Assembly: GCA_963725665.1 (NCBI GenBank)
Contig: CAVRZA010000011.1
Coordinates: 224,001-288,000, forward strand
Direction of reading: 5' to 3'
DNA: 64,000 nucleotides
Origin: an uncultured Actinomycetes bacterium
GTDB taxonomy: Bacteria > Actinomycetota > Thermoleophilia > UBA2241
Below are positions 22,991-56,745 of this stretch, piece by piece (position 1 is the stretch's first letter; each line of letters starts with the position of its first letter). The notes under the pieces were generated by a model. The model was not told the DNA's origin, did not search any database, and saw only the letters and a program-made list of their open reading frames with translations. Both the position numbers and the translations under genes were made by a program.

Positions 22991-23066
22991 TGGTGGGCGA
23001 TGGTGGATTTGAACCACCGACCCCTTGCTTGTAAGGCAAGTGCTCTTACCCCTGAGCTAATCGCCC
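22991..23066 (-). tRNA. tRNA-Val(TAC)
   Basis: GGGCGATTAGCTCAGGGGTAAGAGCACTTGCCT-TAC-AAGCAAGGGGTCGGTGGTTCAAATCCACCATCGCCCACCA; TATAAT upstream at about 23145-23150. Confidence 0.97.
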
Positions 23067-32382: not shown

Positions 32383-32471
32383 CGCGCTATTATGGCAGAA
32401 GTGCGGGGCAAGGTGGCGATGGTCGGCGCAAACCTCAGCGCCGGGCGCCGCCGCCCGGTCGGCCTAGTCGG

Positions 32472-34822: not shown

Positions 34823-36214
34823 CTAGGCGGTCAGCTCGTCCGCCATCTCGGCGAAGACTTCCACGTACCTGTCGGCCTCCGCCAGCGTGTGCTGCACCGA
34901 GATCGTGAACTCCTGGTCCCGTCCCGGGGCTGCGAAGATGCCGCGATTGGCGAGGTAGAGCCAGGCCAGGTCCATCACCTCCGCGTCCTGGTGCATCACG
35001 TAGCTCTCGTAGTCGGTCACCTTGGTGTCGGAGAACGTGATGCACCCCTTGGCGCCGATGGCCACCGGATACGCGGGAAGACGGTGCGCGTCGATGACCT
35101 CCTGGCAACCCTGCTTGAGCCGCTCGCGCACGCCGGCAAGCTGCGCGTACCCTTCGGGCGTCAAGACCTCGAACAGCGTCGCGCGGGCCGCCGCCATCGT
35201 CAGCGGGTTGCCGTTGAAGGTTCCGACCTGCCACACCTTGTCGTTCTCGACGACCGCGAACACCTCATCGCTGCCACCGATAGCGCCGGAAGGCACGCCG
35301 CCGCCGAGGCTCTTGGCGAGAGTGACCATGTCGGGCAGCACGCCGAAGTACTCGGTCCCGCCTCCCGGAGCGACAGTGAGACCTGTCTTGACCTCATCGA
35401 ATACCAGCACGACGCCGTGCTTCTTCGTGAGCTCGCGCACCCGCTCGAGGTAGCCCGGCTCGGGCAAGACGACGCCGATGTTCATCATCGCCGGTTCCAT
35501 GATCATGCAGGCCGGTACACGCCCCTCCGCCGCCAGCGTCTCCAGACGCCTCTCCATCGCGTCGGCGTCGTTGAAGGGCACGGCGACGGTCATGTCGACG
35601 ACCGCTTGCGGGATCCCTTCGCCGTAAGGGAGCGAGAAGTACGCATCACGTGGGCCCAGGTCGCCGTAGTTGCCCGGCACCGACACCATCACATAGTCGT
35701 GATGGCCGTGATAGGAACCGAAGATCTTCATCACGGTGTCACGTCCGGTGAGGGCGCGTGCGATCCTGATGGCGTCCATGGTCGCCTCGGATCCTGAGTT
35801 CGTGAACCGCCACTTGGGGAGCCCCCAGCGCCGGGCCAGCTCCTCGGCGACCTCGACCCCCGCCTCGGTGGGTTCGCAGTACTGGGTGCCGTGGGTCACT
35901 TGCTCCTGTATCGCCTTGACGATGGCGGGATGCGCGTGGCCGTGCACCATGCAGCCGAAGCCGTTGAGATAGTCGATGTACTCGTGGCCGTCGACGTCCC
36001 AGATGCGCGATCCCTTCCCGTCTTTCATGTAGATCGGCCAGGGGTCGCGCCAGTGGTACGACGACCCGATGCCCTTGGCGAGGGACTTCCGCGCACGCTC
36101 GTACATCGCCGCCGATCCGGGCGTGCTGTCGTTGAAGCGCGTCAGCTCGCGGGCACTCAACTGTCCCACGCGGTCGCGATCGAGCGGCCGCGATCGGATC
36201 TCCTGGGTCTGCAT
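34823..36214 (-). CDS. class III PLP aminotransferase (GSA-aminomutase-like)
   Basis: WDVDGHEYID, FTNSGSEA, YHGHHD, FDEVKTG, AKSLGGG, GTFNGNP. Confidence 0.9.
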   Translation of the reverse strand: MQTQEIRSRPLDRDRVGQLSARELTRFNDSTPGSAAMYERARKSLAKGIGSSYHWRDPWPIYMKDGKGSRIWDVDGHEYIDYLNGFGCMVHGHAHPAIVKAIQEQVTHGTQYCEPTEAGVEVAEELARRWGLPKWRFTNSGSEATMDAIRIARALTGRDTVMKIFGSYHGHHDYVMVSVPGNYGDLGPRDAYFSLPYGEGIPQAVVDMTVAVPFNDADAMERRLETLAAEGRVPACMIMEPAMMNIGVVLPEPGYLERVRELTKKHGVVLVFDEVKTGLTVAPGGGTEYFGVLPDMVTLAKSLGGGVPSGAIGGSDEVFAVVENDKVWQVGTFNGNPLTMAAARATLFEVLTPEGYAQLAGVRERLKQGCQEVIDAHRLPAYPVAIGAKGCITFSDTKVTDYESYVMHQDAEVMDLAWLYLANRGIFAAPGRDQEFTISVQHTLAEADRYVEVFAEMADELTA

Positions 36215-36368
36215 CTCGCTCCCTCCCTCTGCTGCCCGGCCCGGCGGACGTGCGCCGAGCGTCACCTTCTCGGCGAAGTCATCCTCCGGCTGCATACTTC
36301 GCGCCTGCTCGCACACCCCTCACCACCAGCGAGTGGTCATAGGTCTCGCCCGTGATCGACGATGCCTC

Positions 36369-37715
36369 TCATCGGCAGCGCCTGTCATCGACCCGGTGGC
36401 AGGCCGTCTTGCCGTCTCCGCTGGTCATCCTGGGCAGCGACATCGGCTCCGCCAGCTCGATACGCGGGGTGACGCCGATGGTCCCCTTCGTCGCCTTGGC
36501 AAGCTTCTGCGAGAGCTTCTCCCGCGCCTCTTCGTCCAGCTCGCTGAGCTCGCAGATCTCCACTTGAAGAGTGAGCTGGTCGCGGTTCATCGAGGTCTCG
36601 AGGACCATGCAGAAGTTGTTGCCGACCTTGTCGAACTGCGCCAGGACCTCCTCGATCTGGCTCGGGAACACGACGTACGCGCCGATCGACAGGGCCTCGT
36701 CACTCCGACCGGTGATCTTGCCTATTCTTGGATGCGAGCGGCCGCAGGCACACGGGCTCCACGTTAGCGACGACAGGTCGTGGCTGCGAAAGCGGATCAT
36801 CGCCATGGAATCGCTCGAGAGAGAGGTCCAGACGAGCTCGCCCGGCGCGCCGTCATCCACCCATTCGCCCGTCGCGCGATCGATGCACTCCACCAGGAAG
36901 GAGTCTGACCACACGTGCATGCCGTCCCTCTCCGGGCACTCACAGGCCATGCCGGGCCCCAGGAACTCGCCCATGCCGAACTCGTTGAAGGCCTCAACGC
37001 CCAGGCACGATTCGAGCCGTCGGCGCCCTGACTCGGGCCAGGGCTCGGCGCCGAACAAGCCCACCCGCAGGCTCGAGTCCCTGGCGAGATCGACGCCGCG
37101 CTCGCGCGCCCTGTCTGCGAGGTAGAGCCCGTAGGAGGGCGTCGTGACGATGGCGGTGACACCCAGGTCGACGATCAGGTCGATCTGCAGCTCGTACCGG
37201 CCGATGCCGGCAGGGACCACGCCGACGCCCATCTTCTGGGCGCCGTAGTGGAATCCGATCCCGGTGGCCAGCCCGTACGAGAAGCAGTTCTGGAGAAGGT
37301 CTCCCGGACGCAAGCCGACCATCCACAGCGAGCGCGCGTTCAGCGAGGCCCACTCGTCCATGTCGTGCCGCGTGGCGAAGATGGGGATGGGCTTGCCGGT
37401 GGTCCCCGACGTGGTGTGCACCTCGAGGACCTCGTTCCGCTCGCACGTCATCAGGCCGTGGGGATACGCCTCGCGGGCGGTCTGCTTCTCGAGGAAGGGC
37501 AACTTGCGCACATCCTCGAGCGCCGTGATGTGCCGGGGCTCGACGCCCGCTGCGCGGCACAGGTCCCGGTAGGCGGCGCTGCGCTCGTACGCCGTGGAGA
37601 CTCTGCTCTTGAGTCGCTCCAACTGCAGCTCCCGGAGCGCGCGAACGTCGAGCGTCTCAGCCCGCAAATCGAAGTAGGTCCGCAGCTCCTCGGTGTTGCC
37701 GATCGCCTGTCTCAT
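36369..37715 (-). CDS. paaK: phenylacetate-CoA ligase family protein
   Basis: HTTSGTTGKP, FSYGL, FGAEPW, GRSD, GKTA.RV.D. Confidence 0.88.
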   Translation of the reverse strand: MRQAIGNTEELRTYFDLRAETLDVRALRELQLERLKSRVSTAYERSAAYRDLCRAAGVEPRHITALEDVRKLPFLEKQTAREAYPHGLMTCERNEVLEVHTTSGTTGKPIPIFATRHDMDEWASLNARSLWMVGLRPGDLLQNCFSYGLATGIGFHYGAQKMGVGVVPAGIGRYELQIDLIVDLGVTAIVTTPSYGLYLADRARERGVDLARDSSLRVGLFGAEPWPESGRRRLESCLGVEAFNEFGMGEFLGPGMACECPERDGMHVWSDSFLVECIDRATGEWVDDGAPGELVWTSLSSDSMAMIRFRSHDLSSLTWSPCACGRSHPRIGKITGRSDEALSIGAYVVFPSQIEEVLAQFDKVGNNFCMVLETSMNRDQLTLQVEICELSELDEEAREKLSQKLAKATKGTIGVTPRIELAEPMSLPRMTSGDGKTACHRVDDRRCR

Positions 37716-37748
37716 ACGAATCCCCGATCCCCTACGGTACTCATCCGA

Positions 37749-38357
37749 TCAGACACGTGCGGGTGCGGGCGGGAGCCCTGACCGCCGCCCCACCGCGAAC
37801 GCCGCCAGGTTGACCTGCAGCCAGTCCGTGTTCACCGAGTTCTCGATCGCCCGTCGCCATGCCTCGTCTGCGAAGGTCAAGTGGTTGGCGAGCACGCCCA
37901 AGAGCACGACCCCTGCCACCTTGCCGCTCCCGGCCTCCTCGCCGAGCCTGTTGCCGTCCACCGCGATCAGGCGGTAGCTCTGACCGCGCATCCGTTCGAG
38001 CGCGGCGTCGGGGTAGGAGTGTGTGCCCGTCGCGGCTATCGGGGGGACGATCCTCTCGGTGTTGACGATGGCCACGCCATCGTCGGCGACGGAAGGAGCC
38101 CAGCGCAGCCCTTCCGCGATCTCGAACGCGAGGAGATAGTCGACCTCTCCCGGGGTGATGGCCGGAGCGATCACCCTCGTGCCGATCCTGACGTGCGCCT
38201 GCACGCTGCCGCCGCGCTGCGACATCCCGTGCGTCTCGCTCTCCTTGACTTCGAGACCCCCGTGAAGAAGCGCCGCCTCGGCGACGATCGTGGCGGCCAG
38301 TATGACGCCTTGGCCCCCGACACCGACGATCAGGATGTCCGCGTGTCCGTCGCCCAT
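37749..38357 (-). CDS. iorB: indolepyruvate:ferredoxin oxidoreductase beta subunit
   Basis: GVGGQGVILA, ETHGMSQRGGSV, NLAAF. Confidence 0.93.
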   Translation of the reverse strand: MGDGHADILIVGVGGQGVILAATIVAEAALLHGGLEVKESETHGMSQRGGSVQAHVRIGTRVIAPAITPGEVDYLLAFEIAEGLRWAPSVADDGVAIVNTERIVPPIAATGTHSYPDAALERMRGQSYRLIAVDGNRLGEEAGSGKVAGVVLLGVLANHLTFADEAWRRAIENSVNTDWLQVNLAAFAVGRRSGLPPAPARV

Positions 38358-40138
38358 CACGCCCTCGCCTTCGAGATCGCCTGAGGCCGGCAGACCTGAG
38401 CGCATATCGAGCAACCCGTGCACGCACTGGCGTCGATGGCGATCTTGTGCCGGTTCTTCACCATGGAGTCGGTCCAATGGAGGGCGGGGCAGGCGAGCTT
38501 CATGCACTGCTGGCAGGCGGTGCAGGCCTCCTCGTCCACCTCGTAGACCTCGTCGGCCCTTACCTTGCGCGGGAACAGGACGCACGGCCGGTTGGTGATG
38601 ACGACCGAGGGTCCCTCGAAGTCCAGAGCGGCCCTCAGAGCGGCCGTGCAGGCGTCGAGATCATACGGATCGACGGTCTGGACGCTCTTCACGCCGAGCG
38701 CCCGGCACAGCGCCGGCAAGTCGACGGGGGGTGTCTCGACGCCCGAGAGGTTGCGCTCGGAGCCGGGGTGCGTCTGCCCTCCGGTCATGGCCGTGATGTT
38801 GTTGTCCTGGATCAGGAGGGTCACGTTCGTCTTCTGATGGACGGCGTTGAGCAGACCCGAGACACCTGAGTGGAAGAAGGTCGAGTCCCCGATCACAGCG
38901 ATGGAGCCTTTCTCGTAGCCCCCCGCCCGCCCGACCCCCTGCGCCATGCCGATGCTGGCGCCCATGGCGACGACGGTGTGCATGGCCGACATGGGCGGCA
39001 GACAACACGAGTCGTAGCAGCCGATGTCACCGTTCACGTAGAGGCCGAGACGCTTGATGGCCGTCACCATGCCGCGGTGCGGGCAGCCGGCGCAGAAGAT
39101 CGGCGGCCGCGGGATGACGCTCGTGTCGCGCGCGACGCGAGGCTTCTGCCACCGCGGCAGAGCGACACCGGCCTCGTCGAGGCCACGGCCGACGACCTGT
39201 GGAGTCAGCTTCCCCTGCGCTGGGAAGAACGCCTTTCCTTCGACGGCGATGCCGTCGGCGAGGATCTGCTCCTCGAGGAAAGGCTCAAGCTCCTCCACCA
39301 CGAAGAGGCGTTCGACTTGCTGCGCGAACCGCCGAACGGCGCCGATCGGGAGCGGGTTCACAAGACCGAGCTTGAGGAAAGCGGCGTCCGGCACGGCCTC
39401 CTTGGCGGCGAGGTAGGCCGCCCCGGAGGTGATGATGCCGAGTCTCTCGAGATCGCCTACGCCCGGCTCCACCCGGGCGAGGGGGGGTCCCTCGGCATAC
39501 TCGCACAGGCGGGCCAGCCTCGCGGCCAACCCGCGATGAAGCTCCCGCGAGAACACCGGGACCAGGCAGTACTTGGCGGCGTTCTTCTCGAGGTCCTTGC
39601 GCTCACGCTCGACGCGCTCGCCGAGCTCGACCAGGGATTTCGAGTGCGCGATGTCGGTCGTCACGCGCACCATCACCGGGATGTCGTAGGTCTCGCTGAG
39701 CTCGAGCGCGATGCCGACGAAGTCCTTGCATTCCTGGCTGTCTGAGGGTTCGAGTATCGGGATGCCTGCGAGCCGGCCGAAGTAGCGATCGTCCTGCTCG
39801 GTCGACGAGCTGTCCATGCCCGGGTCGCTGCCGCAGACGACCACTAGGCCGCCGTTCACTCCCGTATACACGGAGCTGATCATGGGATCGGCGGCCACGT
39901 TGACGCCGGGGCTCTTCATCGCGGTCAGGGCCCGCACGCCGCCGACCGCGGCGCCGAAGGCCACTTCGTAGGCCACCGCCTCGTTGGTGGACCACTCCGC
40001 GTACACCGGGTCGTAACGAGCGATGTTCTCAAGGATCTCGCTGCTGGGGGTGCCCGGGTAGGCAGCCGCGACCCGCACCCCGTGTTCGTAGGCTCCGCGC
40101 GCGATGGCCTCGTTGCCGAGCATGAGCCGCCTCGTCAT
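38357..40138 (-). CDS. iorA: indolepyruvate:ferredoxin oxidoreductase alpha subunit
   Basis: LGNEAIARG, YPGTPSSE, FCAGCPHR, GDIGCY, IGDSTFFHSG, TAMTGGQ, two C-terminal ferredoxin Cys motifs. Confidence 0.95.
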   Translation of the reverse strand: MTRRLMLGNEAIARGAYEHGVRVAAAYPGTPSSEILENIARYDPVYAEWSTNEAVAYEVAFGAAVGGVRALTAMKSPGVNVAADPMISSVYTGVNGGLVVVCGSDPGMDSSSTEQDDRYFGRLAGIPILEPSDSQECKDFVGIALELSETYDIPVMVRVTTDIAHSKSLVELGERVERERKDLEKNAAKYCLVPVFSRELHRGLAARLARLCEYAEGPPLARVEPGVGDLERLGIITSGAAYLAAKEAVPDAAFLKLGLVNPLPIGAVRRFAQQVERLFVVEELEPFLEEQILADGIAVEGKAFFPAQGKLTPQVVGRGLDEAGVALPRWQKPRVARDTSVIPRPPIFCAGCPHRGMVTAIKRLGLYVNGDIGCYDSCCLPPMSAMHTVVAMGASIGMAQGVGRAGGYEKGSIAVIGDSTFFHSGVSGLLNAVHQKTNVTLLIQDNNITAMTGGQTHPGSERNLSGVETPPVDLPALCRALGVKSVQTVDPYDLDACTAALRAALDFEGPSVVITNRPCVLFPRKVRADEVYEVDEEACTACQQCMKLACPALHWTDSMVKNRHKIAIDASACTGCSICAQVCRPQAISKARA

Positions 40139-40383
40139 GGCCTCATCTCACCGTGCCCCTCCACCAGACAGCAAGCCGACTCCATTATCATCCAGGATAC
40201 CGGACGGGCTTCTTCACGGCACGCATTGTGTGAACGGACTCAAAGGCCTGCGTCACGGTCCTCGGCGTCGGTCACGGCGCCCAGTGCGGGTGTCGCCTGC
40301 CAAAGAACGGGGTGTCCCTCCCACGCGCATGGTGCGTTCTCTGTCGCTTGACGTATCACGCCCTCACCAGAAAGATGTGCACC

Positions 40384-41091
40384 ATGGGCGAACAGACACC
40401 ACCTAGAACGGGAGCGAACCACGCGGTCGCTCCGGACGTACCTCTGGGGGCACTGGGCGGTGTCCTACGCCGGGCGCGTGAAGCCGCTGGCATCGGCGTA
40501 CGGGAGATGGCCAGCAGACTGGGCTGCTCCCCCAGCCACGTCTCCCAGGTCGAGCGCGGCGTGACGAGCCCCTCAGTGCACACGCTCTTCAGCATGGTCA
40601 GAGAGCTGGGCGTGTCGCTCGACGACTTGCTGGTCGCGGCGTCGGCGGACATGGTACCTCCGAGCACGGGGGAGATCGGACCGTGGCCGGGGCGCATCGT
40701 CCGTTCTGCCGACCGCCGTTGCATCGCGCTGCCCGGCGGTGTCAAGTGGGAGATGCTCATCCCCGCCGTCGAGGAAGGCTTTGAGTTCGTCGAGTACGTC
40801 TACGAGGTCGGCGGTCGCGACGGCGACGATTTCTTCAGACGAAACGGTTGGGAGTACGGCCTGGTACTCGAGGGACGGCTGAAGGGCGCCATTGGTTTCG
40901 CGGAGTTCGTTCTCGAAGCTGGTGACTCGATCGCCTTCGACTCCAGCGCCCCGCACCGCTTCTCCAACGCGGGCGATATCCCGGCTCGGGCTGTCTGGGT
41001 CTGGCACAGCCCGGCCATCGCGGGCGACAAGCCCGCCCAGGCCCTCGATGCTCGACGGGCCCACAACGAGCCCGACCGCAACGAGCCGTGA
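40384..41091 (+). CDS. XRE-family HTH-cupin transcriptional regulator
   Basis: SHVSQVERGVTSPS; G.EYGLVLEG.L..LEAGDSIAFDS..PHR. Confidence 0.9.
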   Translation: MGEQTPPRTGANHAVAPDVPLGALGGVLRRAREAAGIGVREMASRLGCSPSHVSQVERGVTSPSVHTLFSMVRELGVSLDDLLVAASADMVPPSTGEIGPWPGRIVRSADRRCIALPGGVKWEMLIPAVEEGFEFVEYVYEVGGRDGDDFFRRNGWEYGLVLEGRLKGAIGFAEFVLEAGDSIAFDSSAPHRFSNAGDIPARAVWVWHSPAIAGDKPAQALDARRAHNEPDRNEP

Positions 41092-41299
41092 GCAGACGGG
41101 GCGCTCGCAAAGAGTACCCCGAGCGGAGAGGGGGTGAGGGCCACCCAGGGCATCCACCGCACGTCCACGTGGTCTCGGCTGGCTGAGTGCGACCGGGAGC
41201 GGTCGCCAAAGCGACGTCGGCACGGGCAGATCGCCCACCGGCAGTCTCCAGGCGGCGACCGCGTTTCATCGGCAGGCGTCAGATGGAGGTGTCGTCGCA

Positions 41300-41938
41300 G
41301 TGAGTTTCTTCACCGAAATGAAGGATGCGGTGGTCAGGGGGGACAGCCAGGCGTGCATCGACCTGGCGACAAAAGCCGTCGAGTCCGGCGTCGATCCCCA
41401 GCAGGCCATCCAGGAGGGGTTCGCCCCGGGTATGGAGGTCGTGGGCCGGGGGTTTGAAGAAGGAAGCCTGTTCCTCCCCGACATGATACTCGCAGCCGAG
41501 GCTATGACAGCCGGAGTGAGCGTCCTCGAGGCGGCGATGCCCGCGAACGAACTCGAGGGAAGGCGAAAGGCGAAGGCCGTCGTCGCCACCGTCCAGGGCG
41601 ACGTGCACGACATCGGCAAGAACATCCTGCGCATCGTGCTGTCGACGTCCGGCTTCGACGTGGTGGACCTCGGCCGCGATGTGAAGGTGGCGACCATCAT
41701 CGCGCGGGCGAGGGAGGAGCGGGCAGACATCATCGGCGCATCGGCCTTGATGACGACGACGATGATGTACATGAAGGAGCTGCTCGAGGAGCTCTCCGAG
41801 GCGGGGATCCGCGAGGAGTTCAAGGTCATGGTGGGTGGCGCGCCGGTCACTGACGCCTGGGCGCGGGAGATCGGCGCCGACGGGTACGCCAAGGACGCCT
41901 TCGCCGCGGTCCAGCTGGCCAAGCAGCTGGTGAAGTGA
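41300..41938 (+). CDS. methyltransferase cognate corrinoid protein (MtmC/MttC-like)
   Basis: GDVHDIGKN B12-binding motif, SALMTTTM, MVGGAPVT, GADGY..DA..AV. Confidence 0.95.
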   Translation: MSFFTEMKDAVVRGDSQACIDLATKAVESGVDPQQAIQEGFAPGMEVVGRGFEEGSLFLPDMILAAEAMTAGVSVLEAAMPANELEGRRKAKAVVATVQGDVHDIGKNILRIVLSTSGFDVVDLGRDVKVATIIARAREERADIIGASALMTTTMMYMKELLEELSEAGIREEFKVMVGGAPVTDAWAREIGADGYAKDAFAAVQLAKQLVK

Positions 41939-42037
41939 CGCGGCCGTTTCGGCCGTTGATGCGACGACCGGATGTCCACGCCGCGCGCGCTGAGGCGGGC
42001 ACCATCCGGCATCAGCACTGATGGGAGGAGCAACGAA

Positions 42038-43420
42038 GTGATCACCTTCTGGGACGTAGTGGAGCGCTGCGACCGCGGCGAGCGCATGTCGGAGTCCGAC
42101 TTCGACAGGATGCTGTGGGAGAACGTGCGAGCGCTGACCGAGAAGTACGACATCCACTTCGACGGTGAAACGCCCGTGCCGAGCGACGACGGCCTGGCCG
42201 ACAGGGCCTATCAGGCAGCCCTGGAGCTGTTCCTGGCCACCGGCTTCTACTGCACGAGCACACAGCGGGCGGTGCGATTCTCGCGTGAGGAGGTCGAGGA
42301 GGCCGTCCGGCACGCCAAGACGTCCTACACGTTTGGAGAGGGGCGAGACCAGCACACCATGCGACCGCGGGTCGTCGAGGACGAGCGGCCGCCGACCTGC
42401 ATCTTCTCGGGCCTGGGCGTACCAGTCGACGAGGCGGTGTTCCCGAAGGTCTGCCAGGCGATCGCGGCGGAGCCGTTGGCCGACGCCTTCTGCTGCGTGT
42501 CACTGCACGACACCTTCCGCGGCATCCCTATCAAGTCGGGACATCCCATCGAGGTGGCCGCGTGCATGTGGGACGTCACCAAGCGCCGCGAGGCAGCCCG
42601 ACTGGCTGGACGGCCGGGCCTGGGCCTCTACGCGATGGTGTCCGTCGGCGAGAGCACAGCTTCGATCATCGCCGCGTCGCACCCGGCGTTCGGAGCGTTG
42701 CCGAGAGACGTGCCGCAGGTCGGCGCCATCGCCGAGCTGAAGGTCGATTACGAGCGGATGAACAAGGTCGCCTTCGAACGCGAGTGCGGGATCGGGCTCG
42801 CCGGGCTCTACGGGCCGCTCATGGGCGGGTACGCCGGCGGTCCCGAAGGGACGATGCTCGTCCAGATAGCCCACTTCTTCCTCGGCCTGCTCGCCTACAA
42901 CGTCGAGTACCACATCTGCTTCCCGATCGACATCAATCAGACGTGCAGCACGACGGTGCCGCTGCTGTGGCTCGTCAGCGTGTACTGCCAGGCGATCGCC
43001 CGCAACTCGAGGATGCTCAACATCTGCACCACCATGGCGGCCGGCGGCCCGTCGAGCGAGATGCTCTTCTACGAGATGGCCGCCGGCGCCATCGCGCACA
43101 CGGTCTCTGGGGCGAACCACGTCCAGGGCGGGATAGCGCGCGACAAGTACCCCGAACGGGTGTCGACGCTGGAGCTGAGGCTCGGCGCCGAGACGGCGCA
43201 CGCGGTCGCGGCCATGAGGATGACCCGCGCGCAGGCAAACGACGTGGTGAAGGAGCTCGCCAGCCGCTACGTGGCCGACATTCCCAGGGCGCCCCTCGGC
43301 AAGACCTTCACGGAGCTCTACGACCTGGAGCGTGTCAGGCCGCTGGACGAGTACATCGATGTCTATCGGAAGATGAAGAAGAAGGTGTCCGAGGCCGGGG
43401 TCGACTACTCCGTTCTCTAG
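42038..43420 (+). CDS. mtmB: monomethylamine:corrinoid methyltransferase (MtmB) family protein, pyrrolysine-free
   Basis: GTG after GGAGGA; 460 aa; VPSDD.LAD, GFYC..T.R...F, AGRPGLG, ELKVD, GGYAGGPEG, AGGP, GKTF.E.YD; Tyr (TAC) at the Pyl position. Confidence 0.88.
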   Translation: MITFWDVVERCDRGERMSESDFDRMLWENVRALTEKYDIHFDGETPVPSDDGLADRAYQAALELFLATGFYCTSTQRAVRFSREEVEEAVRHAKTSYTFGEGRDQHTMRPRVVEDERPPTCIFSGLGVPVDEAVFPKVCQAIAAEPLADAFCCVSLHDTFRGIPIKSGHPIEVAACMWDVTKRREAARLAGRPGLGLYAMVSVGESTASIIAASHPAFGALPRDVPQVGAIAELKVDYERMNKVAFERECGIGLAGLYGPLMGGYAGGPEGTMLVQIAHFFLGLLAYNVEYHICFPIDINQTCSTTVPLLWLVSVYCQAIARNSRMLNICTTMAAGGPSSEMLFYEMAAGAIAHTVSGANHVQGGIARDKYPERVSTLELRLGAETAHAVAAMRMTRAQANDVVKELASRYVADIPRAPLGKTFTELYDLERVRPLDEYIDVYRKMKKKVSEAGVDYSVL

Positions 43421-43485
43421 ATCACGCTGGAGTGACCGGCCGGCTCTCGTGGGCCGGCGCTGTCCGGGCCGATCGCGAAGGAGCC

Positions 43486-44856
43486 ATGAGCACCATGACG
43501 GACGCACTGACGCTGGATCATCTCATCGACGACGCCCACCTCGAAAGGACGCGCGAGCTGTTCGCCAAGTGCCAGGAGGTCGTCTCGGGCGGCGAGAGCA
43601 GCTACGCGCGACTGATCGGCACGCGTCCGATCGTGATGGAACGCGGCGAAGGAGCCCGCTTCTACGACGTCGACGGCAACGCCTACATCGACTGGTGTCT
43701 CGGCTACGGACCGATGATCTTCGGGCACCGGCCCAAGCCCATCCTCGATGCGATCATCGCGCAGATCACCTCGGGCGGGATGCTCTACACGTTCCCGCAC
43801 GAGCTCGACTACGAGGTGGGCAGCAAGATCGTGCAGACCGTGCCCGGCATCGACCAGGTCCGCTTCGCCAACTCCGGCAGCGAAGCCACACAGGCGGCCA
43901 TCCGTCTGGCTCGCGCCTATACCGGCAAGGACAAGATCCTCAAGTGGGAAGGTAGCTACAACGGCTTCCTCGACTGCCACGCCTTCTCGCACATGCCGGC
44001 GCTCGAGGCCGCGAGCACGGAACGTTTCCCCCGCACGCTGCCGTCGATGGCTGGCATCCCAAGAGCCGTCGAGGAGACCGTGATCGTCGGTTGCTTCAAC
44101 GACCTCGACAGCGCCGAGGAACTCATCAGAAGGAACGCGGGCGAGCTGGCCGCTGTGCTCAGCGAGCCCATCCTCGCAGACGCCGGCATCATTCCACCGG
44201 AGCCGGGCTTTCTCGAGGGGTTGCGTCGCCTTTGCGACGAATACGGGGTCCTGCTCATCTTCGACGAAATCATAACGGGCTTCCGCGTGGCGCTCGGGGG
44301 CGCCCAGGAGCTGTACGGCGTCACCCCCGACATCACGTGTGTAGCCAAGGCGGTCGGCGGGGGCACACCCGGGGCGGCAGCCTTCGGGGGTCGCAAGGAC
44401 ATCATGGAGCTCGAAGCCGAGGGTGTGGTGCTGCACGGCGGCACCTACAGCGGCAACCCCATGACCCTGGCGGGGATGAACGCCGCGCTCGACATCCTCA
44501 TCAACGATCGCGAGCGCGTGTACGGGCACCTCAACGCGATCGCCGATGCTATGGTCAAGGGCATGCGCGGCATCTTCGCCGAGCTCGGTGTGCCCGCCTA
44601 CATCGGTCAGGTCGGGCCGATGTGGCAGGTGTTCTTCGGGCACGAGGCCCCAGTCACCCGCTATCGCCAAGCCCGGGCCAGCGACACCGACTTCTTCAGC
44701 CACCTTCAGACCGAGTGCCAAGCGCGCGGCGTGTACTTCCACAACTTCAACTTCGAGCGCTTCTTCGCCAGCACCGCGCACACGATGGCCGAGGTCGACC
44801 GCAGTCTGGAGGTGATCGAGACGGCGACCAAGGCCGTCAACACGCGCAGCGGTTGA
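43486..44856 (+). CDS. class III PLP aminotransferase (GSA-aminomutase-like)
   Basis: YDVDGNAYID, RFANSGSEA, FDEIITGFR, AKAVGGG, GTYSGNP; AAGGAG RBS. Confidence 0.9.
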   Translation: MSTMTDALTLDHLIDDAHLERTRELFAKCQEVVSGGESSYARLIGTRPIVMERGEGARFYDVDGNAYIDWCLGYGPMIFGHRPKPILDAIIAQITSGGMLYTFPHELDYEVGSKIVQTVPGIDQVRFANSGSEATQAAIRLARAYTGKDKILKWEGSYNGFLDCHAFSHMPALEAASTERFPRTLPSMAGIPRAVEETVIVGCFNDLDSAEELIRRNAGELAAVLSEPILADAGIIPPEPGFLEGLRRLCDEYGVLLIFDEIITGFRVALGGAQELYGVTPDITCVAKAVGGGTPGAAAFGGRKDIMELEAEGVVLHGGTYSGNPMTLAGMNAALDILINDRERVYGHLNAIADAMVKGMRGIFAELGVPAYIGQVGPMWQVFFGHEAPVTRYRQARASDTDFFSHLQTECQARGVYFHNFNFERFFASTAHTMAEVDRSLEVIETATKAVNTRSG

Positions 44857-44999
44857 GACGAAAGCGGCATTACGGCGTGGGCCAGCTTCGAGACTGTGTC
44901 TGGCGCACGCCGCGACCCGCCCCAACGACCGCGATACATGTCGTCGCACAGCCTCAGAGCCAGCACCCCGCTACACCTGCGACCCGGATGGTGAGTGCC

Positions 45000-45668
45000 A
45001 TGCCACAGCTGTTCACACTGCACGAGCAAAGCGAGACGCACATCAAACTGCAGAGGCAGATCCAGGAAGTGGACATCACGGTCGACGTGTCGACTGCCTT
45101 CGACCCGCATCTCGGCCCGCACACGACCATCGACTTCCTCGACCACCTCGTCGCCACCCTGGCCTGGGGCCTCTGCATGTCGGTGGGCTGCACGGTCGCC
45201 GAAGGGCGATGGCGCTCGACCCACACGATAGCTGAGGACGCTGGGCAGACCATCGGAGCGGCGCTCAAGAGCTTCTTCTATCGCAGGATGGTCGCGGAGG
45301 GCATCAACGGCTGCGGCTCGGCCGTCTTTGGCCTCGACGAAGCCTTGGCGAGGGCGATGGTGGGCGTAGAGGGCAGACGGAACTCGTTCATCACTGTGGC
45401 CGCTGACTGCCCCGGTGGCCGCCTCGAGTCCGTCGAGGACATGCGATCGGCCGACTGCGTCGCTTTCGTCGAGGGCTTCGCCCAAGGCTTCCCGGCCACC
45501 GTCCACCTGGACCTGCTCACTGGTCGGGACCCGCACCACGTCTGGGAATCGGCGTTCATGGCCTTGGGCGAAGCCCTGCGGATGGCTTTCCAGACCAATC
45601 CCTGGAGGATCGCGAAGAACAACCCCTACTACGCCGACGAGGGCCTCGCCGACGCGTCGCTCGCATAG
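45000..45668 (+). CDS. divergent imidazoleglycerol-phosphate dehydratase (HisB)-fold protein
   Basis: TTIDFLDHL, HTIAEDAG..G, LDEALA, GRDPHHVWESAF..LG.ALR.A. Confidence 0.75.
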   Translation: MPQLFTLHEQSETHIKLQRQIQEVDITVDVSTAFDPHLGPHTTIDFLDHLVATLAWGLCMSVGCTVAEGRWRSTHTIAEDAGQTIGAALKSFFYRRMVAEGINGCGSAVFGLDEALARAMVGVEGRRNSFITVAADCPGGRLESVEDMRSADCVAFVEGFAQGFPATVHLDLLTGRDPHHVWESAFMALGEALRMAFQTNPWRIAKNNPYYADEGLADASLA

Positions 45669-45693
45669 CGACGCAGCCGATCGCGGGGGGACT

Positions 45694-46800
45694 TCAGACC
45701 GCCGCCTGCAACACGCCTTCCAGCGTCTCGATCAGACGCGCGTTCTGTGCCGCATCACCGACCGTGATGCGCAGGAACTCGGGCAGGTCGTAGCCGTCGC
45801 ACGGCCGCACGATTATCCCTCTGGCGAGTAGCGCCTGCGCGATCCTCTCCGCCTCGGGTCCGATTCTGACCAGGAGGAAGTTGGTGTGGCTCTCGACATA
45901 GCGCAGGCCCATGCGGTCGAACTCGCGGTACAGGTATCGTCGTCCAGCGGCGTTCAACGCGATCGAGCGCTGGACGTACTCCGCGTCCTGCAACGCTGCC
46001 GCCCCCGCCGCCTGCGCCAGGATGTTGACGGCAAAGGGCTCCTTGATCTTGTTCAGCGGCGCGAGCACGTCGGGGTCGGCGATCGCGTAACCCAAGCGGA
46101 CGCCGGCCAGTCCGTAGACCTTCGAGTAGGTGCGCATGACCATCACGTTCTTGCGCCCGGCGTGCACGTACTCCGTGGTCTTCGGGTAGTCGGGTGAGTC
46201 CACGAACTCGTAGTACGCTTCGTCGAAGATGACGAGCACGTCCTCGGGCACCGCCCCCATGAACGCCTCCACTTCGCTCCCCGTCACCACGGTGCCGGTT
46301 GGGTTGTTCGGGTTGCAGACGAAGATCAGCTTCGTCCTCGGCGTGATCGCCGCCCGCATCGCATCGAGGTCAAGCCGGTAGTCCCTGAGCGGCGTCTTGA
46401 TCAGCCGAGCACGCATCGCCGTCGCGAAGACGTCGTACACGGGGAAGGACGAGCGGCTGACGATGACCTCGTCGTCCTGGTCGAGATACGCCATGCAGGT
46501 CTGCATGATCAACCCGTCCGCGCCGTTGCCCACCGCGATCTGCTCCGGCTTGAATCCGAGGTGTGCCGCCAAGGCATGGCGAAGGTAATAGCACTCGCCG
46601 TCAGGGTAGGAGTTCAACTGCGGCAAGGCTGCTTGCATCGCCGCCACGGCCTTGGGCGCCGGTGGCATCGGATTCTCGTTGGAGGCCAGCTTGATGACGT
46701 CGCCGAGACCGAGCTCCCGCTGCACCTCTTCGACCGGTCGACCGGGCACGTAGGCCGCGATGTCGGCCAACGCCGACTGCGGCCTGACCAGCCTCACCAT
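45694..46800 (-). CDS. hisC: histidinol-phosphate/aromatic aminotransferase
   Basis: YVPG, KLASNENP, CNPNNPTG, DEAYYEF, RTYSKVYGLAGVRLGY, LRITVG. Confidence 0.92.
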   Translation of the reverse strand: MVRLVRPQSALADIAAYVPGRPVEEVQRELGLGDVIKLASNENPMPPAPKAVAAMQAALPQLNSYPDGECYYLRHALAAHLGFKPEQIAVGNGADGLIMQTCMAYLDQDDEVIVSRSSFPVYDVFATAMRARLIKTPLRDYRLDLDAMRAAITPRTKLIFVCNPNNPTGTVVTGSEVEAFMGAVPEDVLVIFDEAYYEFVDSPDYPKTTEYVHAGRKNVMVMRTYSKVYGLAGVRLGYAIADPDVLAPLNKIKEPFAVNILAQAAGAAALQDAEYVQRSIALNAAGRRYLYREFDRMGLRYVESHTNFLLVRIGPEAERIAQALLARGIIVRPCDGYDLPEFLRITVGDAAQNARLIETLEGVLQAAV

Positions 46801-47071: not shown

Positions 47072-48703
47072 TCACTCAGGCGGCAACTCGCCGTACGTCA
47101 TGGAGAGGTCCACGCCGACGGAGCGGCTGCGCGCTTTCCAGATGTAGTACCAGATGACGCCCAGCACCCAGACGCCGACGAACAGGTAGATCGATTCCGT
47201 GGTGAACTGGCGGGCGGCCTCGTTGAAGATGAACACGTAGAGCAGGATGAGCAGGTAGGCGATGTCGACCAGCGCCCCCCACACGATCACGGGCAGACCG
47301 AGGAAGCTCCACTTCTGGTAGGGCGAGGAGTCCCAGATGCCGCGCGCCCGCTTCATGTAGGGGAAGAGCAGGGCGGCGAACGCCGTGGGCAGGAAGACCG
47401 AGGTGACCTGCAGCCCCGTGACCACGACGTTCTGCATCACGGCGAAGCTGGAGAACGAGTAGATCACCAGGAGGATCTGGCTCAGCCCGAGGCAGAGGAT
47501 GTGGTTCTTCACCGGGCTGGCGAAGCGTGGGTTGATGTCGGTGAACCACTTGGGCCCCATGCGGTCCATGCCCCAGGCGAAGAGGATGCGCGGGAAGGCC
47601 AGATAGGAGAGCGCTAGCCACCACAGCGTGAAGCCGATGTAGGAGAGCGCCATCCACGCGGCCAGCACCTTGCCGAAAGCGCCGAGCGCCGCCGAGCTCG
47701 CCCCGAGGCAGTAGACGCCGAGCGAGATGAAGTCGCTCGCGAACGGCATGTTGTAGGTGTCGATGGCGCCGTTGTTGTCCATCCACGAGGCCGCCTGAAT
47801 GAACTGGTAGCCGGTCGTCTTGTTGACCACGATTGCGGTCCAGAACATGAAGATGAAGGGCACCACGATGGCGAACACGTTGGCCCAGATGATGGTCTTG
47901 TCGGGGCGCTTGACCTCGCCGGCGATGAACGAGATCGAGTAGGCGTAGGCGAACAGCCAGCTCATGACGACCATGGTGCCGAATGTCGCCCCCCAGCTCC
48001 AGCTGGTGGGCATGGCCTGCCCGGCCGCGTCACCGATCTGCTTGATGAACTCCGCGTAGCGCGGCGACTGCGTGGCGTCGGCGGCAGCGTTCCAGTTGGC
48101 GATGAAGGTGGCCTTGCTGGTGAAGGTGAACACCAGGGCGATGACGACGGCGCCGCCGATCGAGAAGAACATCACGAACTTCTGCGTGATGGCGAAGATC
48201 CGGATGCCGAAGACGACGAACAGGAAGCCCACGAAGTTGAAGAGGCTGGCGACCACGAAGATCAGCCAATTGCTGTTGGCGAGCTTGTCGGCCGCGCTCG
48301 TCCAGCCGATGTAGCTGAACATCACGGAGAGGCCCGTGTTGGCGATGAGCGGCGCCAGCACGTAGAGCCACATCAGCCAGATGACGGCGTCGCCGAAGCT
48401 CTGCGCGATGCCGAAGATGGGATGGATGATGCGCGAGTTGTAGATGTACTCGCCGCCCGAGCGCGGCATGCTGCCGCCCAGGACGCCCCAGACGATGGGG
48501 AAGCCGATACCGGCCATGATGAGCGAGATGACGGCGGCGATGACCAGGTTGCCGCCCAGAAAGACACCCAGGCCAAGCGTGAAGATCAGCCAGATGCTCG
48601 GCGTGATCCCCTGGTTCATGAAGCCGACGGCGAACGCGTCCATCATCGAGAGGCCGCGTACGAGTCCGCTGGCCTTGCGCGCGTAGGCAAACTCTTGAGG
48701 CAC
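47072..48703 (-). CDS. APC family amino acid/amine permease
   Basis: YARKASGLVR, MPRSGGEY, R.LFAWGMDR; about 12 TM segments; AGGAAGGGGG RBS. Confidence 0.9.
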   Translation of the reverse strand: MPQEFAYARKASGLVRGLSMMDAFAVGFMNQGITPSIWLIFTLGLGVFLGGNLVIAAVISLIMAGIGFPIVWGVLGGSMPRSGGEYIYNSRIIHPIFGIAQSFGDAVIWLMWLYVLAPLIANTGLSVMFSYIGWTSAADKLANSNWLIFVVASLFNFVGFLFVVFGIRIFAITQKFVMFFSIGGAVVIALVFTFTSKATFIANWNAAADATQSPRYAEFIKQIGDAAGQAMPTSWSWGATFGTMVVMSWLFAYAYSISFIAGEVKRPDKTIIWANVFAIVVPFIFMFWTAIVVNKTTGYQFIQAASWMDNNGAIDTYNMPFASDFISLGVYCLGASSAALGAFGKVLAAWMALSYIGFTLWWLALSYLAFPRILFAWGMDRMGPKWFTDINPRFASPVKNHILCLGLSQILLVIYSFSSFAVMQNVVVTGLQVTSVFLPTAFAALLFPYMKRARGIWDSSPYQKWSFLGLPVIVWGALVDIAYLLILLYVFIFNEAARQFTTESIYLFVGVWVLGVIWYYIWKARSRSVGVDLSMTYGELPPE

Positions 48704-49068: not shown

Positions 49069-49902
49069 CTAGGCGCTCGTGTACCGCCCCAGCCGCAGGA
49101 TCTGCCGCGCCTCGTCGGGGGTGGCCGGCTCGCGGTTCCACTCGCGGGCCAGACGCACTACGCGCTCGACCAGCCGCGCGTTGCTCTCGGCGAGCACCTT
49201 CCTATGCAGGAAGATGTTGTCCTCGAACCCGAGACGCACGTTGCCGCCCAGGGCGAGGGCCGTCATCGTCACCGGCATATGCCAGCGCCCGATGCCCGTG
49301 CAGGTCCAGGTCGAGCCCTCCTTGGGTATCGAGTCGACGAGGAACATCAGGTTGCGCGGCTCTCCGCTCATCGAGCCCGGCACGCCGAGCACGAAGTCCC
49401 AGTGCAGCAGGGGGCCGGCCGGGCCCAGCCTCTCGACCAGCCGCAGCGCGTTGTCGATCTGTCCGGCCTCGAAGATCTCGAACTCGGGACGTACGCCGGC
49501 CGCCCGCTCGCGCTCATAGAACTCGCTCATGAGCGCCTGGTCGTTGAAGAAGACCTCGTCGCCGAAGTTGGCCGTGCCCGTCGTCAGCGAGGCCATCTCG
49601 GGCCTTAGTTCAAGCGGCTGCAAGCGCTCATCGGCCGTCATGCCCATGGCCCCGCCCGTCGAGGCCTGGATGATGATGTCGGTGCGCTTGCGGATCTCCG
49701 CGATGGCGGTGGCGAACACCTCGCGGTCCTGTGTGGGCGTGCCGTCGGGGCGCCGCACGTGCAGGTGGTACATCGCGGCGCCGGCCTCGCGGCAACGCGC
49801 CGCGTCGACGCCGATCTCCTCCGCAGTCACGGGGAGGTTGGGCTGCGCCTGCTTGGTCGTCTCGGCCCCCACGCCGGCGACCGTGATGATCAGGTCCCCC
49901 AT
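49069..49902 (-). CDS. kce: 3-keto-5-aminohexanoate cleavage enzyme (BKACE)
   Basis: LIITVA..GAE, GAAMYHLHVR, STGGA, PEMASL, RPEFEIFE.G, FVLGVPG, GGNVRLGFEDN. Confidence 0.9.
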   Translation of the reverse strand: MGDLIITVAGVGAETTKQAQPNLPVTAEEIGVDAARCREAGAAMYHLHVRRPDGTPTQDREVFATAIAEIRKRTDIIIQASTGGAMGMTADERLQPLELRPEMASLTTGTANFGDEVFFNDQALMSEFYERERAAGVRPEFEIFEAGQIDNALRLVERLGPAGPLLHWDFVLGVPGSMSGEPRNLMFLVDSIPKEGSTWTCTGIGRWHMPVTMTALALGGNVRLGFEDNIFLHRKVLAESNARLVERVVRLAREWNREPATPDEARQILRLGRYTSA

Positions 49903-49937
49903 GGCTTCTCCTTTGCGCGAAATGGCCGACGCGATTG

Positions 49938-51208: not shown

Positions 51209-51540
51209 AAGACTCCTTTCCGCGAGGCGATCGGATTGCTCGTGGCGCCCCGCCTCATCCACCTTGCGCTGGCTAGTGGCGCCCACTCCCGCGGCCGCGC
51301 GGAGCGGGTGGCGCCAGGCCTGTCTCTGGGAGGCCGCAGGGCCGTCGCCGGTCGCCGGGATCGCGGCCGTGCGGCAGGTTGGACTCTACCTCATTTCACC
51401 GAGCGGTGTCTGCCGTCGTGGCCACAGCACCGGCACCCAGCCTGCAGCCGGTGCGCCAATCTGGCCATGCGTGCGCGCTCTTACCTCCATCGCTCTATGG
51501 ACCATCGCCGCCGCGGGCGCCCCCCAAGATGCACTTGGGC

Positions 51541-52461: not shown

Positions 52462-52490
52462 CGTGCCGTCCTGGACCGCCGCTTGGCTTC

Positions 52491-53492
52491 TCACGGCGGC
52501 ATCCCCTGGCCGGCGACGCCCGAAAGGAGGGGGCGCGCAGAGGCGCCTTCCTCGACCGCCGGCGTGGGCTCGGGTGCCCCGAAAACGATGATGAGCACTC
52601 CCGCGGCGATGATGAGGGCGCCGCCGGCGACGGTCCACGCCGAGGGACGTTGTCCGAGGAACACCAGTGCGAAGAGGGGCGCGCTCACAGGCTCGATGTA
52701 GCCCATGATCGAGGCGTGCTGCACCTTGACGTAGTGCATGCCGTCGAGGAACAAGCTAAACGACAGGGCCGTCATGACGAGACCCAGCAGGGCGGCCAGG
52801 AGCAGGTTGCGGGCCGTGAAATCGGCTGCCGGCGTCCGCCACAGCCCGAACGGCACCAGCACGACCGCCGTCACCACGCAGAGGGAGAAGACGATGCTGG
52901 TGCTGTGCAGGCCGCGGCGTCGCAGCTGCTTGGTCTGGAGCAGGTAGAGCGCGTAGAAGACGCCGGCGGCGAGGCCGGCGGCGAGGCCCCCGGCCGAGAG
53001 GCGGGCGCCGTCGCCGGCGAGCCCGGGCACGAGGATCAGCGCCATCCCGCCGACGGCCGCCGCCAGGGCGCCGTACACGACGCCCTCGGTGCGGCCGCCC
53101 TCGAAGCGGGGTCCCAGGAAGGCGACGTACACCGGCGCTAGATACGAGGTGAAGATGGCCACCGCCACCCCAGTCTCGCGTATGGCGACGAAGTAGAGCG
53201 AGAGGTTGGCGGCCAGCGTCAGCCCAGCGAGCAGCAGCCGCAGCGCGACACGCCGATCGCCGATCGAGGGCCAGTCGTGGCGCAGCGCGACGACGAGGCC
53301 GAGGGCGGCGGCGGCGAACACCATGCGCAAGCCGACGAGCATGACGACCGGCATCGTCGCCCACGTCACGACGACGCCGATGGCGCCGTTGATCAGCGCT
53401 CCCGTTCCCACCTCTGAGAAGCCGCGCAGACGGTGACCCCCCGGCCGTCCTCGCGATCTCAAGCGGGACCCCGTCGCGCCGCCATCCGTCAC
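52491..53492 (-). CDS. DMT/EamA family transporter
   Basis: YLAPVYVA, ASIMGYIEPV; paralogue of the adjacent gene. Confidence 0.88.
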   Translation of the reverse strand: MTDGGATGSRLRSRGRPGGHRLRGFSEVGTGALINGAIGVVVTWATMPVVMLVGLRMVFAAAALGLVVALRHDWPSIGDRRVALRLLLAGLTLAANLSLYFVAIRETGVAVAIFTSYLAPVYVAFLGPRFEGGRTEGVVYGALAAAVGGMALILVPGLAGDGARLSAGGLAAGLAAGVFYALYLLQTKQLRRRGLHSTSIVFSLCVVTAVVLVPFGLWRTPAADFTARNLLLAALLGLVMTALSFSLFLDGMHYVKVQHASIMGYIEPVSAPLFALVFLGQRPSAWTVAGGALIIAAGVLIIVFGAPEPTPAVEEGASARPLLSGVAGQGMPP

Positions 53493-55270: not shown

Positions 55271-55309
55271 GGCGTCGCCGCTGTCGCCGCGACCCTCGTC
55301 ACCGCAGTC

Positions 55310-56608: not shown

Positions 56609-56745
56609 GTCGTCGTCTCCTATCTCGCGGGAGCCTCGCCCTCGGCTCCGCTGCCCTGGCCCGAATCTCTCTCATACGAGGCGTGCCGGCGTAAGAAGTG
56701 GGTCAGCACGCAGAGGTCGTCAGGGGCCGCGAAGGCCCTTTGGGG

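Follow-up and report, generated by a model that had tools for sequence, protein, structure and literature searches.

A 64 kb stretch of DNA (~68% G+C; hereafter the window) on contig C11 of an uncultured bacterium of the class Thermoleophilia carries, at positions 34823–46800, a homolog of the methyltransferase MtmB that lacks pyrrolysine (Pyl), together with its own corrinoid protein, an XRE-cupin regulator and two divergent gene arms. This Pyl-free MtmB system is real and conserved, and genes of both arms lie together in related genomes in several gene orders. It is moderately likely that the locus encodes a three-part, corrinoid-dependent system that removes the N-methyl group of a mono-N-methyl amine or amino acid and is joined to a degradation route via transamination and oxidation by an indolepyruvate-type 2-oxoacid:ferredoxin oxidoreductase (IOR). 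The host is probably a soil or sediment actinobacterium that feeds on a methylated amine or amino acid via this B12-dependent demethylase. A pathway of this kind had been proposed in an earlier, sequence-only reading of the window, and it is supported in part.

The Pyl-Free MtmB Homolog and Its Partners

The host genome (3.73 Mb) is assembled in 12 contigs. Genes were called from third-position G+C and start-site context, and families were assigned with Pfam and NCBIfam. All nine genes named in the sequence-only reading are present at 34823–46800, as are the two divergent arms around the regulator; their starts are corrected here, the true starts of several open reading frames (ORFs) lying downstream of the longest-reading-frame start (Table 1). 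The minus arm comprises AT3a, a PaaK-like ligase, IorB and IorA, and the plus arm comprises the corrinoid protein (corr), MtmB, AT3b and a protein related to imidazoleglycerol-phosphate dehydratase (IGPD-like), with the plus-strand regulator gene between the arms. An APC permease and the activase RamA, both encoded outside this interval, are counted into the system. The grouping goes beyond chance, because it recurs in other gene orders in relatives.

The MtmB homolog is a full-length member of PF05369 (298 bits, cut-off 25; model positions 2–449 of 450) and matches M. barkeri MtmB (1L2Q) with E = 3e-56, in the 30% identity range. Its start is at 41972 or 42038, the latter being the gene call of the protein database (460 aa). 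The ORF has no internal stop and so lacks the in-frame UAG of Pyl-dependent MtmB. In a HMMER alignment, Tyr220 is the residue aligned to the Pyl position of 1L2Q; Tyr occupies this position in 18/18 rows of the ortholog clade, and Val or Asn in other paralog clades. The absence of Pyl, which the sequence-only reading had claimed, is thus confirmed. Its further statement that no Pyl-free MtmB homolog has a characterized substrate no longer holds: demethylation of tetramethylammonium and choline was reported in 2026 for a non-Pyl MtmB homolog, MtqB of Methanococcoides methylutens Q3c (PMC13044021).

A classical MtmB is encoded in the same genome (C3:245990–247345; 631 bits) with one in-frame TAG exactly at the position equivalent to Tyr220; genes for a dedicated corrinoid protein and an Amt-type transporter come next. 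PylB, PylC and PylD are also encoded, all above NCBIfam cut-offs (C6:343844–347028; L084 and L089 are the Pyl/MtmB sites). Since the host has both PylBCD and a classical MtmB, the window protein is, to judge from its sequence, a separate, diverged paralog with another job and not a decayed gene.

The corrinoid protein scores 224 bits against TIGR02370 (cut-off 215) and has the DxHxxG motif as GDVHDIG; its gene adjoins the mtmB homolog in every locus that has sequence at that position. Regulator orthologs (70–84% identity) lie directly upstream of corr-mtmB in L001, L002, L091, L092, L093, L097, L098 and L108. The protein database holds at least 305 relatives of the MtmB homolog at E ≤ 1e-60, with taxa that include Spirochaetota, Desulfobacterales and metagenome-assembled genomes of Anaerolineae, and their names go no further than "monomethylamine:corrinoid methyltransferase". 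Within the class, 78/401 genomes have an MtmB homolog (E ≤ 1e-20), concentrated in two families (63/79 and 14/61).

Linkage of the Two Arms in Relatives

Orthologous loci were defined by an MtmB identity of ≥75%, which gave 14 loci from species-representative genomes and metagenome contigs, and their flanks were compared by tblastn with the window proteins. Usable flanks are available for 11 of the 14 (L001, L002, L003, L090, L091, L092, L093, L095, L097, L098, L103); L094, L104 and L108 are too short and were left out of the linkage counts. The two arms are linked in these relatives. In L003, the permease, corr, mtmB, iorA, iorB, paaK and AT3a lie on one strand with gaps of <150 bp; L095 has the permease, corr, mtmB and iorA before the contig ends, and L103 has mtmB, iorA, iorB and paaK before its contig end. 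In these three of the 11 loci, an iorA ortholog (72–82% identity) lies immediately 3′ of mtmB on the same strand, and paaK-like orthologs (81–82%) directly follow iorB in L003 and L103. AT3a and/or the permease is kept in a further 2/11: in L001, AT3a converges on mtmB and the permease is a 47% paralog only, and in L097 the order is mtmB, a second regulator, MttB, a second corrinoid protein, AT3a and the permease ortholog. Overall, AT3a orthologs (75–82%) are found beside mtmB in 3/11 loci (L001, L003, L097) and permease orthologs (79–84%) beside corr-mtmB in 3/11 (L003, L095, L097).

As the same orthologs are divergent in the window, their proximity survives rearrangement, and functional coupling draws its main support from this recurrence in several gene orders. 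The sequence-only reading had named unlinked arms in related genomes as a finding that would count against it; the comparison did not refute it, since corr-mtmB-iorA(-iorB-paaK-AT3a) lies on one strand in three relatives (L003, L095, L103). In a maximum-likelihood tree, all orthologous loci fall in one clade (100/100) in which the context types are interleaved, so different neighbors do not mark different enzyme subfamilies; L001 and L097, for example, are sister to L090 and L091 (100/99), whose MtmB proteins are identical to each other.

Beyond this clade, 20 other MtmB-paralog loci were fetched. A dedicated corrinoid protein accompanies the paralog in each, and 7/20 have an aminotransferase of class III or of the HisC family within 10 kb, two of them together with a BKACE enzyme. 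Molybdenum (Mo) hydroxylases of the xanthine-dehydrogenase family occur near mtmB in L092, where two large subunits are encoded upstream, in L002 and in L096, where they are co-directional with mtmB. The L096 string, from a 47% G+C organism with a 66% identical MtmB, runs XRE-cupin regulator, Mo-hydroxylase large subunit, flavin adenine dinucleotide (FAD) subunit, ABC ATPase, corr and mtmB, and ends with a Pot-type binding protein and a permease. Still more distant homologs from another class (L110–L112; 45–48% identical) have a URO-D-type methyltransferase beside the 48% homolog (L111), MttB or a DMSO-reductase-family enzyme as context, and were set aside as having no bearing on the clade.

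Proposed Pathway

We infer every catalytic step, the direction of the IOR and PaaK-like reactions and the substrate from gene content. The APC permease would import an N-methylated amine or amino acid. The Pyl-free MtmB (MT1), with Tyr220 at the Pyl position, would pass the N-methyl group on to the cognate corrinoid protein in its Co(I) state; oxidized corrinoid protein would be re-reduced by RamA, encoded 10 kb away. A methyl-corrinoid:tetrahydrofolate methyltransferase (MT2) encoded elsewhere in the genome would accept the methyl group; in L111, a URO-D-type MT2 adjoins the 48% homolog. AT3a would transaminate the demethylated primary amine, perhaps together with AT3b in this genome; IorAB would convert the resulting 2-oxoacid to an acyl-CoA by oxidative decarboxylation, and the PaaK-like ligase would handle the free acid. 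The XRE-cupin protein is a putative substrate-sensing regulator of the corr-mtmB unit.

The recurring aminotransferases argue for a secondary (mono-N-methyl) rather than a quaternary amine, because a quaternary amine that loses one methyl group leaves no transaminase substrate. The mono-N-methyl substrate put forward in the sequence-only reading therefore fits the aminotransferases at 7/20 paralog loci, which are consistent with a primary-amine product, and leaves unexplained a carbamoyltransferase module present in 4/11 loci (see below). For arylpyruvate oxidation and aryl-acid CoA ligation, also proposed there, the genes are present, and the direction of the IOR/AMP-forming ligase pair is uncertain (PMC13285125).

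Both class-III aminotransferases are GSAM-like, and both fall well below the cut-off of the hemL model TIGR00713 and do not qualify as HemL (AT3a, 346 bits; AT3b, 384 bits; cut-off, 527). The closest solved relatives of AT3a are GSAMs, followed by β-transaminases and D-phenylglycine aminotransferase; those in the AT3b subgroup likewise include the non-GSAM β-transaminases and D-phenylglycine aminotransferase. An AT3b ortholog (80%) lies downstream of the mtmB ortholog in L092. The start codon of iorB overlaps the stop codon of iorA. Additional IorAB-PaaK sets and an AT3a/AT3b paralog pair are present elsewhere in the host genome.

A Possible Imidazole Substrate

More of the contexts are explained by an N-methylated imidazole compound (such as a methylhistidine, methylhistamine or methylimidazoleacetate) than by any other substrate class, an assignment that is possible but tentative. 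It would account for the IOR arm (imidazolepyruvate to imidazoleacetyl-CoA) and for the links of the IGPD-like gene to hutU. Together with the Mo-hydroxylases, it would also account for a sequence from imidazoleacetate via hydantoin-5-acetate and N-carbamoyl-aspartate to aspartate and carbamoyl phosphate.

The IGPD-like protein has the HisB fold family PF00475, and its best HisB equivalog score is 80 bits (cut-off 189). A canonical HisB is encoded elsewhere (C4:294089–294547) and is 28% identical to it. Comparison with yeast IGPD and the host HisB shows that the DH, H..E(D), H and HH..E motifs are preserved in the IGPD-like family, with 7/8 presumed metal ligands retained. In the first HH pair, Thr replaces the second His (6/6 members); the ES-FK motif has Met or Thr instead of Lys, WG stands in place of HH after the first motif, and a conserved C-terminal extension is present. 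Orthologs (70–75% identity) occur in 6/89 genomes of the family. They adjoin canonical hutU (966 bits) in L080 and L081, an aspartate carbamoyltransferase (ATCase) module in L077, L078 and L080, and a permease in L078 and L079. An apparent IGPD-urocanase fusion in L081 was treated as adjacency with a probable frameshift, because the conserved C-terminus of the family is missing from the IGPD part immediately ahead of the junction. Among the papers listed for an IGPD paralog with urocanase, none had a bearing on it. The imidazole suggestion of the sequence-only reading gains indirect support from the retained ligands and from the position beside hutU in two genomes, and stays unproven.

The ATCase module comprises a carbamate kinase, a carbamoyltransferase with a score above the equivalog threshold for aspartate carbamoyltransferase (361 bits, cut-off 237), an ATP-dependent phosphoenolpyruvate carboxykinase (PEPCK), a cyclic amidohydrolase from the group that includes allantoinase, dihydroorotase and hydantoinase, and a small family-less protein of 166–192 residues. 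It looks like a catabolic route through N-carbamoyl-aspartate. The module follows mtmB in L002, L090, L091 and L093, and is also present in L005, where a frameshifted close relative was scored at 59% identity. It occurs in 14/89 genomes of the family and in 5/6 of those with the IGPD-like gene, a co-occurrence that is only indicative because the genomes are kin and not independent. The module is often near xanthine-dehydrogenase-family genes. Pairwise links in different genomes connect MtmB with the module, the module with the IGPD-like gene and, in the window, the IGPD-like gene with MtmB. The IGPD-like gene ties the contexts together, and two imidazole-specific families (IGPD and urocanase) are part of the network.

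Taken as a whole, a previously undescribed, oxygen-independent imidazole route opened by the Tyr-for-Pyl MtmB clade is somewhat unlikely. An N-methylated imidazole would be demethylated and its side chain processed via AT3a, IorAB and the PaaK-like ligase to imidazoleacetyl-CoA or imidazoleacetate. The IGPD paralog, predicted not to bind phosphate, would act on an imidazole intermediate. In related genomes, Mo-hydroxylases would oxidize the ring to give hydantoin-5-acetate, and the cyclic amidohydrolase would open this to N-carbamoyl-aspartate, from which a catabolic ATCase and carbamate kinase would yield ATP, with PEPCK taking on the aspartate carbon. A literature search found no paper that joins methylhistidine, demethylation and corrinoid.

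Evidence Against the Pathway and Alternative Explanations

Several observations weigh against a demethylase coupled to transamination and IOR-type oxidation, and against its imidazole version. Four of the 11 loci (L002, L090, L091, L093) have no IorAB, PaaK, AT3a or permease ortholog on the contig, and it is in these that the ATCase module follows mtmB; the module itself is absent from the genome of the window, where the best carbamoyltransferase is 35% identical and PEPCK has no match. In L098, only SbcCD is found downstream of mtmB. In one genome, G395 (64% complete), a search with the window IorA gave no match at E ≤ 1e-30. Single genomes have multiple IorAB-PaaK trios that are not accompanied by MtmB, so a trio beside mtmB could be there by coincidence. 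The window proteins also fall short of the narrowest models, IorA (635 bits, TIGR03336 cut-off 651) and IorB (210 bits, NF005322 cut-off 237) only just, and the PaaK-like ligase more clearly (373 bits, TIGR02155 cut-off 646). No MT2 gene is present in the window. The ligand roles in the IGPD-like family, with the motif His/Glu set as manganese ligands and the ES-FK Lys as a phosphate contact, are presumed. Finally, the HisC-family aminotransferase is the sole TIGR01141-passing HisC of the host genome (the next closest is 30% identical), and hisC is not conserved beside the mtmB orthologs compared by tblastn; it may therefore be a housekeeping gene, and its membership in the system is doubtful. 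The converging position noted in the sequence-only reading is confirmed, the hisC stop codon lying 25 bp from that of the IGPD-like gene, with the permease gene preceding hisC on the same strand.

One alternative explanation is that the XRE-cupin regulator, corrinoid protein and MtmB work on their own in the demethylation of some small methylated or quaternary amine, and that the neighbors belong to unrelated pathways which merely share genome regions rich in amine and amino-acid genes. Only the regulator, corr and mtmB are constant, downstream genes are of at least three types within one tight clade, and L098 has no catabolic neighbor at all. Regions around mtmB (L001, L092, L097 and the right flank of the window) are crowded with MttB and MtbB genes, and low-GC relatives (57–66% identity) have Pot-type ABC transporters or a DMSO-reductase-family enzyme and no IorAB, PaaK, AT3a or permease ortholog. 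In addition, MtqB, the sole characterized non-Pyl MtmB, acts on quaternary amines, from which the first product is not transaminable (PMC13044021). Against this stand the recurrence of AT3a, IorAB-PaaK and the permease in three orders (window; L003/L095/L103; L001/L097), the single co-directional string of L003, and the pairwise linkage of MtmB, the IGPD-like gene and the ATCase module across genomes. A self-contained demethylase is considered rather unlikely.

A second alternative keeps the coupling and reverses its direction. An N-methyl arylethylamine or imidazolylethylamine would be demethylated, transaminated by an omega-type class-III enzyme to an aldehyde and oxidized to an arylacetate, which the PaaK-like ligase would activate, IorAB would reductively carboxylate, and AT3a or HisC would convert to an amino acid. 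Such salvage would suit the three aminotransferases of two classes in the window and the Pot-type amine ABC transporter genes that flank the 66% homolog in L096. Class-III aminotransferases typically act on amines. The xanthine-dehydrogenase family, whose members near mtmB in L092, L096 and L002 were described above, includes aldehyde oxidoreductases. AMP-forming arylacetate-CoA ligases next to IOR have been argued to run biosynthetically, for amino-acid synthesis in Bacteroides and methanogens (PMC13285125), which also counts against the oxidative direction. The L003 string, however, has one aminotransferase only and no aldehyde-oxidizing enzyme, no Mo hydroxylase or aldehyde dehydrogenase is found in the locus of the window, and the permease and regulator architecture appears more typical of catabolism; the salvage route is improbable.

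That the homolog still acts on free monomethylamine, with Tyr replacing Pyl, is highly improbable: full-length similarity to MtmB and a cognate corrinoid protein would fit such activity, yet Pyl is held necessary for methylamine activation, the Pyl-free clade has its own regulator and transporters, and the same genome retains the TAG-containing MtmB with its corrinoid protein, Amt-type transporter and pylBCD.

Comparison with Known Systems

The nearest characterized case is MtqB/MtqC, which resembles the window pair in being a Pyl-free MtmB-family member with its own corrinoid protein and presumably shares the MT1 chemistry of Co(I) attack on an N-methyl group. It differs in coming from a methanogen rather than a Thermoleophilia bacterium (PMC13044021), and the neighbors of the window gene (aminotransferases, IOR, CoA ligase and permease, with the ATCase module in relatives) are unsuited to choline or tetramethylammonium. 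In a 1,061-sequence tree in that paper, the remaining non-Pyl MtmBs are labeled "unknown function" (PMC13044021).

M. barkeri MtmB/MtmC (1L2Q/1NTH) shares the full-length fold family PF05369, the partner type and the activase type, whereas the window enzyme has Tyr in place of Pyl and the host has a separate TAG-containing copy for that role. The non-Pyl MttB demethylases for glycine betaine (MtgB), carnitine (MtcB), proline betaine (MtpB) and γ-butyrobetaine (MtyB), as named in PMC13044021, are alike in that a Pyl-free paralog took on a larger N-methyl substrate and works with a corrinoid protein, RamA and MT2; they belong to another superfamily (MttB, PF06253), use quaternary amines and have no transamination coupling. 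Modules of IorAB and arylacetate-CoA ligase in Pyrococcus, methanogens and Bacteroides have the same trio of iorA, iorB and a PaaK-like gene (PMC13285125), but that of the window is joined to a GSAM-like aminotransferase and in relatives is transcribed after corr-mtmB. The IGPD-like protein mostly keeps the DH/HxxE(D)/H/HHxxE motifs of HisB in the PF00475 fold, yet is far below the equivalog cut-offs, coexists with a canonical HisB and in relatives lies beside hutU and the ATCase module.

As MtqB is the only Pyl-free MtmB with a known substrate, the clade described here offers a tractable second case, because it has an invariant Tyr at the Pyl site, its own regulator and recurring neighborhoods that point to a primary-amine product. 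This case would widen corrinoid-dependent demethylation beyond quaternary amines, to secondary N-methyl amines or to heterocycles with an N-methyl group. If the imidazole reading were true, it would provide functions for the conserved IGPD paralog and for the module of ATCase, carbamate kinase, PEPCK and hydantoinase-like enzyme. Pyl and non-Pyl paralogs could also be compared in one cell, since the clade occurs in Thermoleophilia that encode pyrrolysine as well.

Pyrrolysine and Other Corrinoid Genes

Related genomes of the class have at least 15 more MtmB matches that contain a single in-frame TAG. MtbB (PF09505) homologs at L001:10710–12125 (−) and L092:16054–17280 (−) each consist of two ORFs split at about model position 353, as expected if an in-frame Pyl codon splits the ORF. 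Pyrrolysine use may extend across a whole Thermoleophilia family. In a 2022 survey, PylRS was known from two Actinobacteria only (PMC9630628), and a literature search on pyrrolysine in Thermoleophilia returned an incidental mention only.

RamA is present in two copies in the host genome, the second on C2, and probably serves several methyltransferase systems. Candidates for MT2 outside the window comprise Pterin_bind matches on C2, C3 and C6 and an MtaA-like match on C1. Another Pyl-free MtmB paralog (31% identical) with a corrinoid protein lies at C4:193603–199158 (L064), 2.5 kb from a HisC-family aminotransferase that is 30% identical to the window HisC. Canonical hutU at C1:189015–193426 (L088) is convergent with genes for a corrinoid protein and an MtaA/CmuA-like methyltransferase, and a GntR regulator gene adjoins them; this is another corrinoid system beside an imidazole-pathway gene.

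Features of the Locus and Its Flanks

Table 1. Features of the Pyl-free MtmB locus, with window positions.
Feature	Position	Strand	Family matches
AT3a, GSAM-like class-III (fold-type I) aminotransferase, 463 aa	34823..36214	-	PF00202 (199 bits)
PaaK-like AMP-forming aryl/acyl-CoA ligase, 448 aa	36369..37715	-	PF00501, PF14535
IorB, indolepyruvate-type 2-oxoacid:ferredoxin oxidoreductase, beta subunit	37749..38360	-	PF01558 (119 bits)
IorA, alpha subunit, thiamine pyrophosphate-binding domains, two [4Fe-4S] motifs, 593 aa	38357..40138	-	PF02775, PF01855, Fer4
XRE-family helix-turn-helix and cupin regulator, PuuR-like architecture	40384..41091	+	PF01381, PF13560, PF07883; weak PuuR match
Leader, regulator to corrinoid gene	41100..41299	+	Conserved G-rich motif GGGGGGTGATGGCC in relatives
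Cognate corrinoid (B12-binding) protein, 212 aa, GTG start	41300..41938	+	TIGR02370
Pyl-free MtmB-family methyltransferase (MT1)	41972..43420	+	PF05369
AT3b, second GSAM-like class-III aminotransferase, 456 aa	43486..44856	+	PF00202 (210 bits)
IGPD-like (HisB-fold) paralog, ~226 aa	44988..45668	+	PF00475 (78 bits)
HisC-family class I/II aminotransferase	45694..46800	-	TIGR01141 (343 bits; cut-off 277)
APC-superfamily permease (AA_permease_2), likely importer	47072..48703	-	PF13520
RamA/RACo-type reductive activase	53489..55270	-	PF14574 (276 bits), PF17651, PF17650, PF00111

In the leader upstream of corr, the G-rich motif (GGGGGGTGATGGCC or similar) lies ~165 nt 5′ of the corrinoid start codon, with hairpin-forming stretches 3′ of it, and it occurs at the same position in L001, L002, L005, L091, L093, L097 and L108. 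Apart from two motifs, 10 aligned leaders share only 66% identity. The G-rich motif may mark the beginning of a short upstream ORF rich in Arg, or it could belong to a leader RNA. A known riboswitch in the corr leader was considered and rejected, Rfam having no match at E ≤ 1 in 40100–41350; at gathering threshold, Rfam reports two tRNAs over the window (21028–21101 and 22994–23066, −) and nothing else. Counts from a promoter and terminator scan equal the shuffled expectation. A shared operator for both arms was considered from a 17-nt imperfect inverted match (82% complementary; 40291–40307 and 41265–41281) and was discarded, because its core recurs in L001 only among the orthologous leaders.

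Directly left of the locus (29527–34520, −) are genes for a UPF0182 membrane protein and a GAF-GGDEF-HD signaling protein. To the right, a second demethylation and amino-acid fermentation array occupies 49069–63862, mostly on the minus strand. It contains Pyl-free MttB homologs (58273–59745 and 62204–63862, with a partial one at 56746–57738), the lysine 2,3-aminomutase AblA (55310–56608; 574 bits, cut-off 525), RamA, two EamA transporters, a class-III aminotransferase, a homolog of 3-keto-5-aminohexanoate cleavage enzyme (BKACE; 49069–49893), an ornithine-racemase-like gene (59962–61050, +) and a solute-binding protein. This array might serve methylated lysine or β-lysine. Its class-III aminotransferase (49938–51286, −), beside BKACE, is divided into overlapping ORFs in different frames (50501–51286 for the N-terminal half and 49938–50729 for the C-terminal part) and is either a frameshifted gene or an assembly error.

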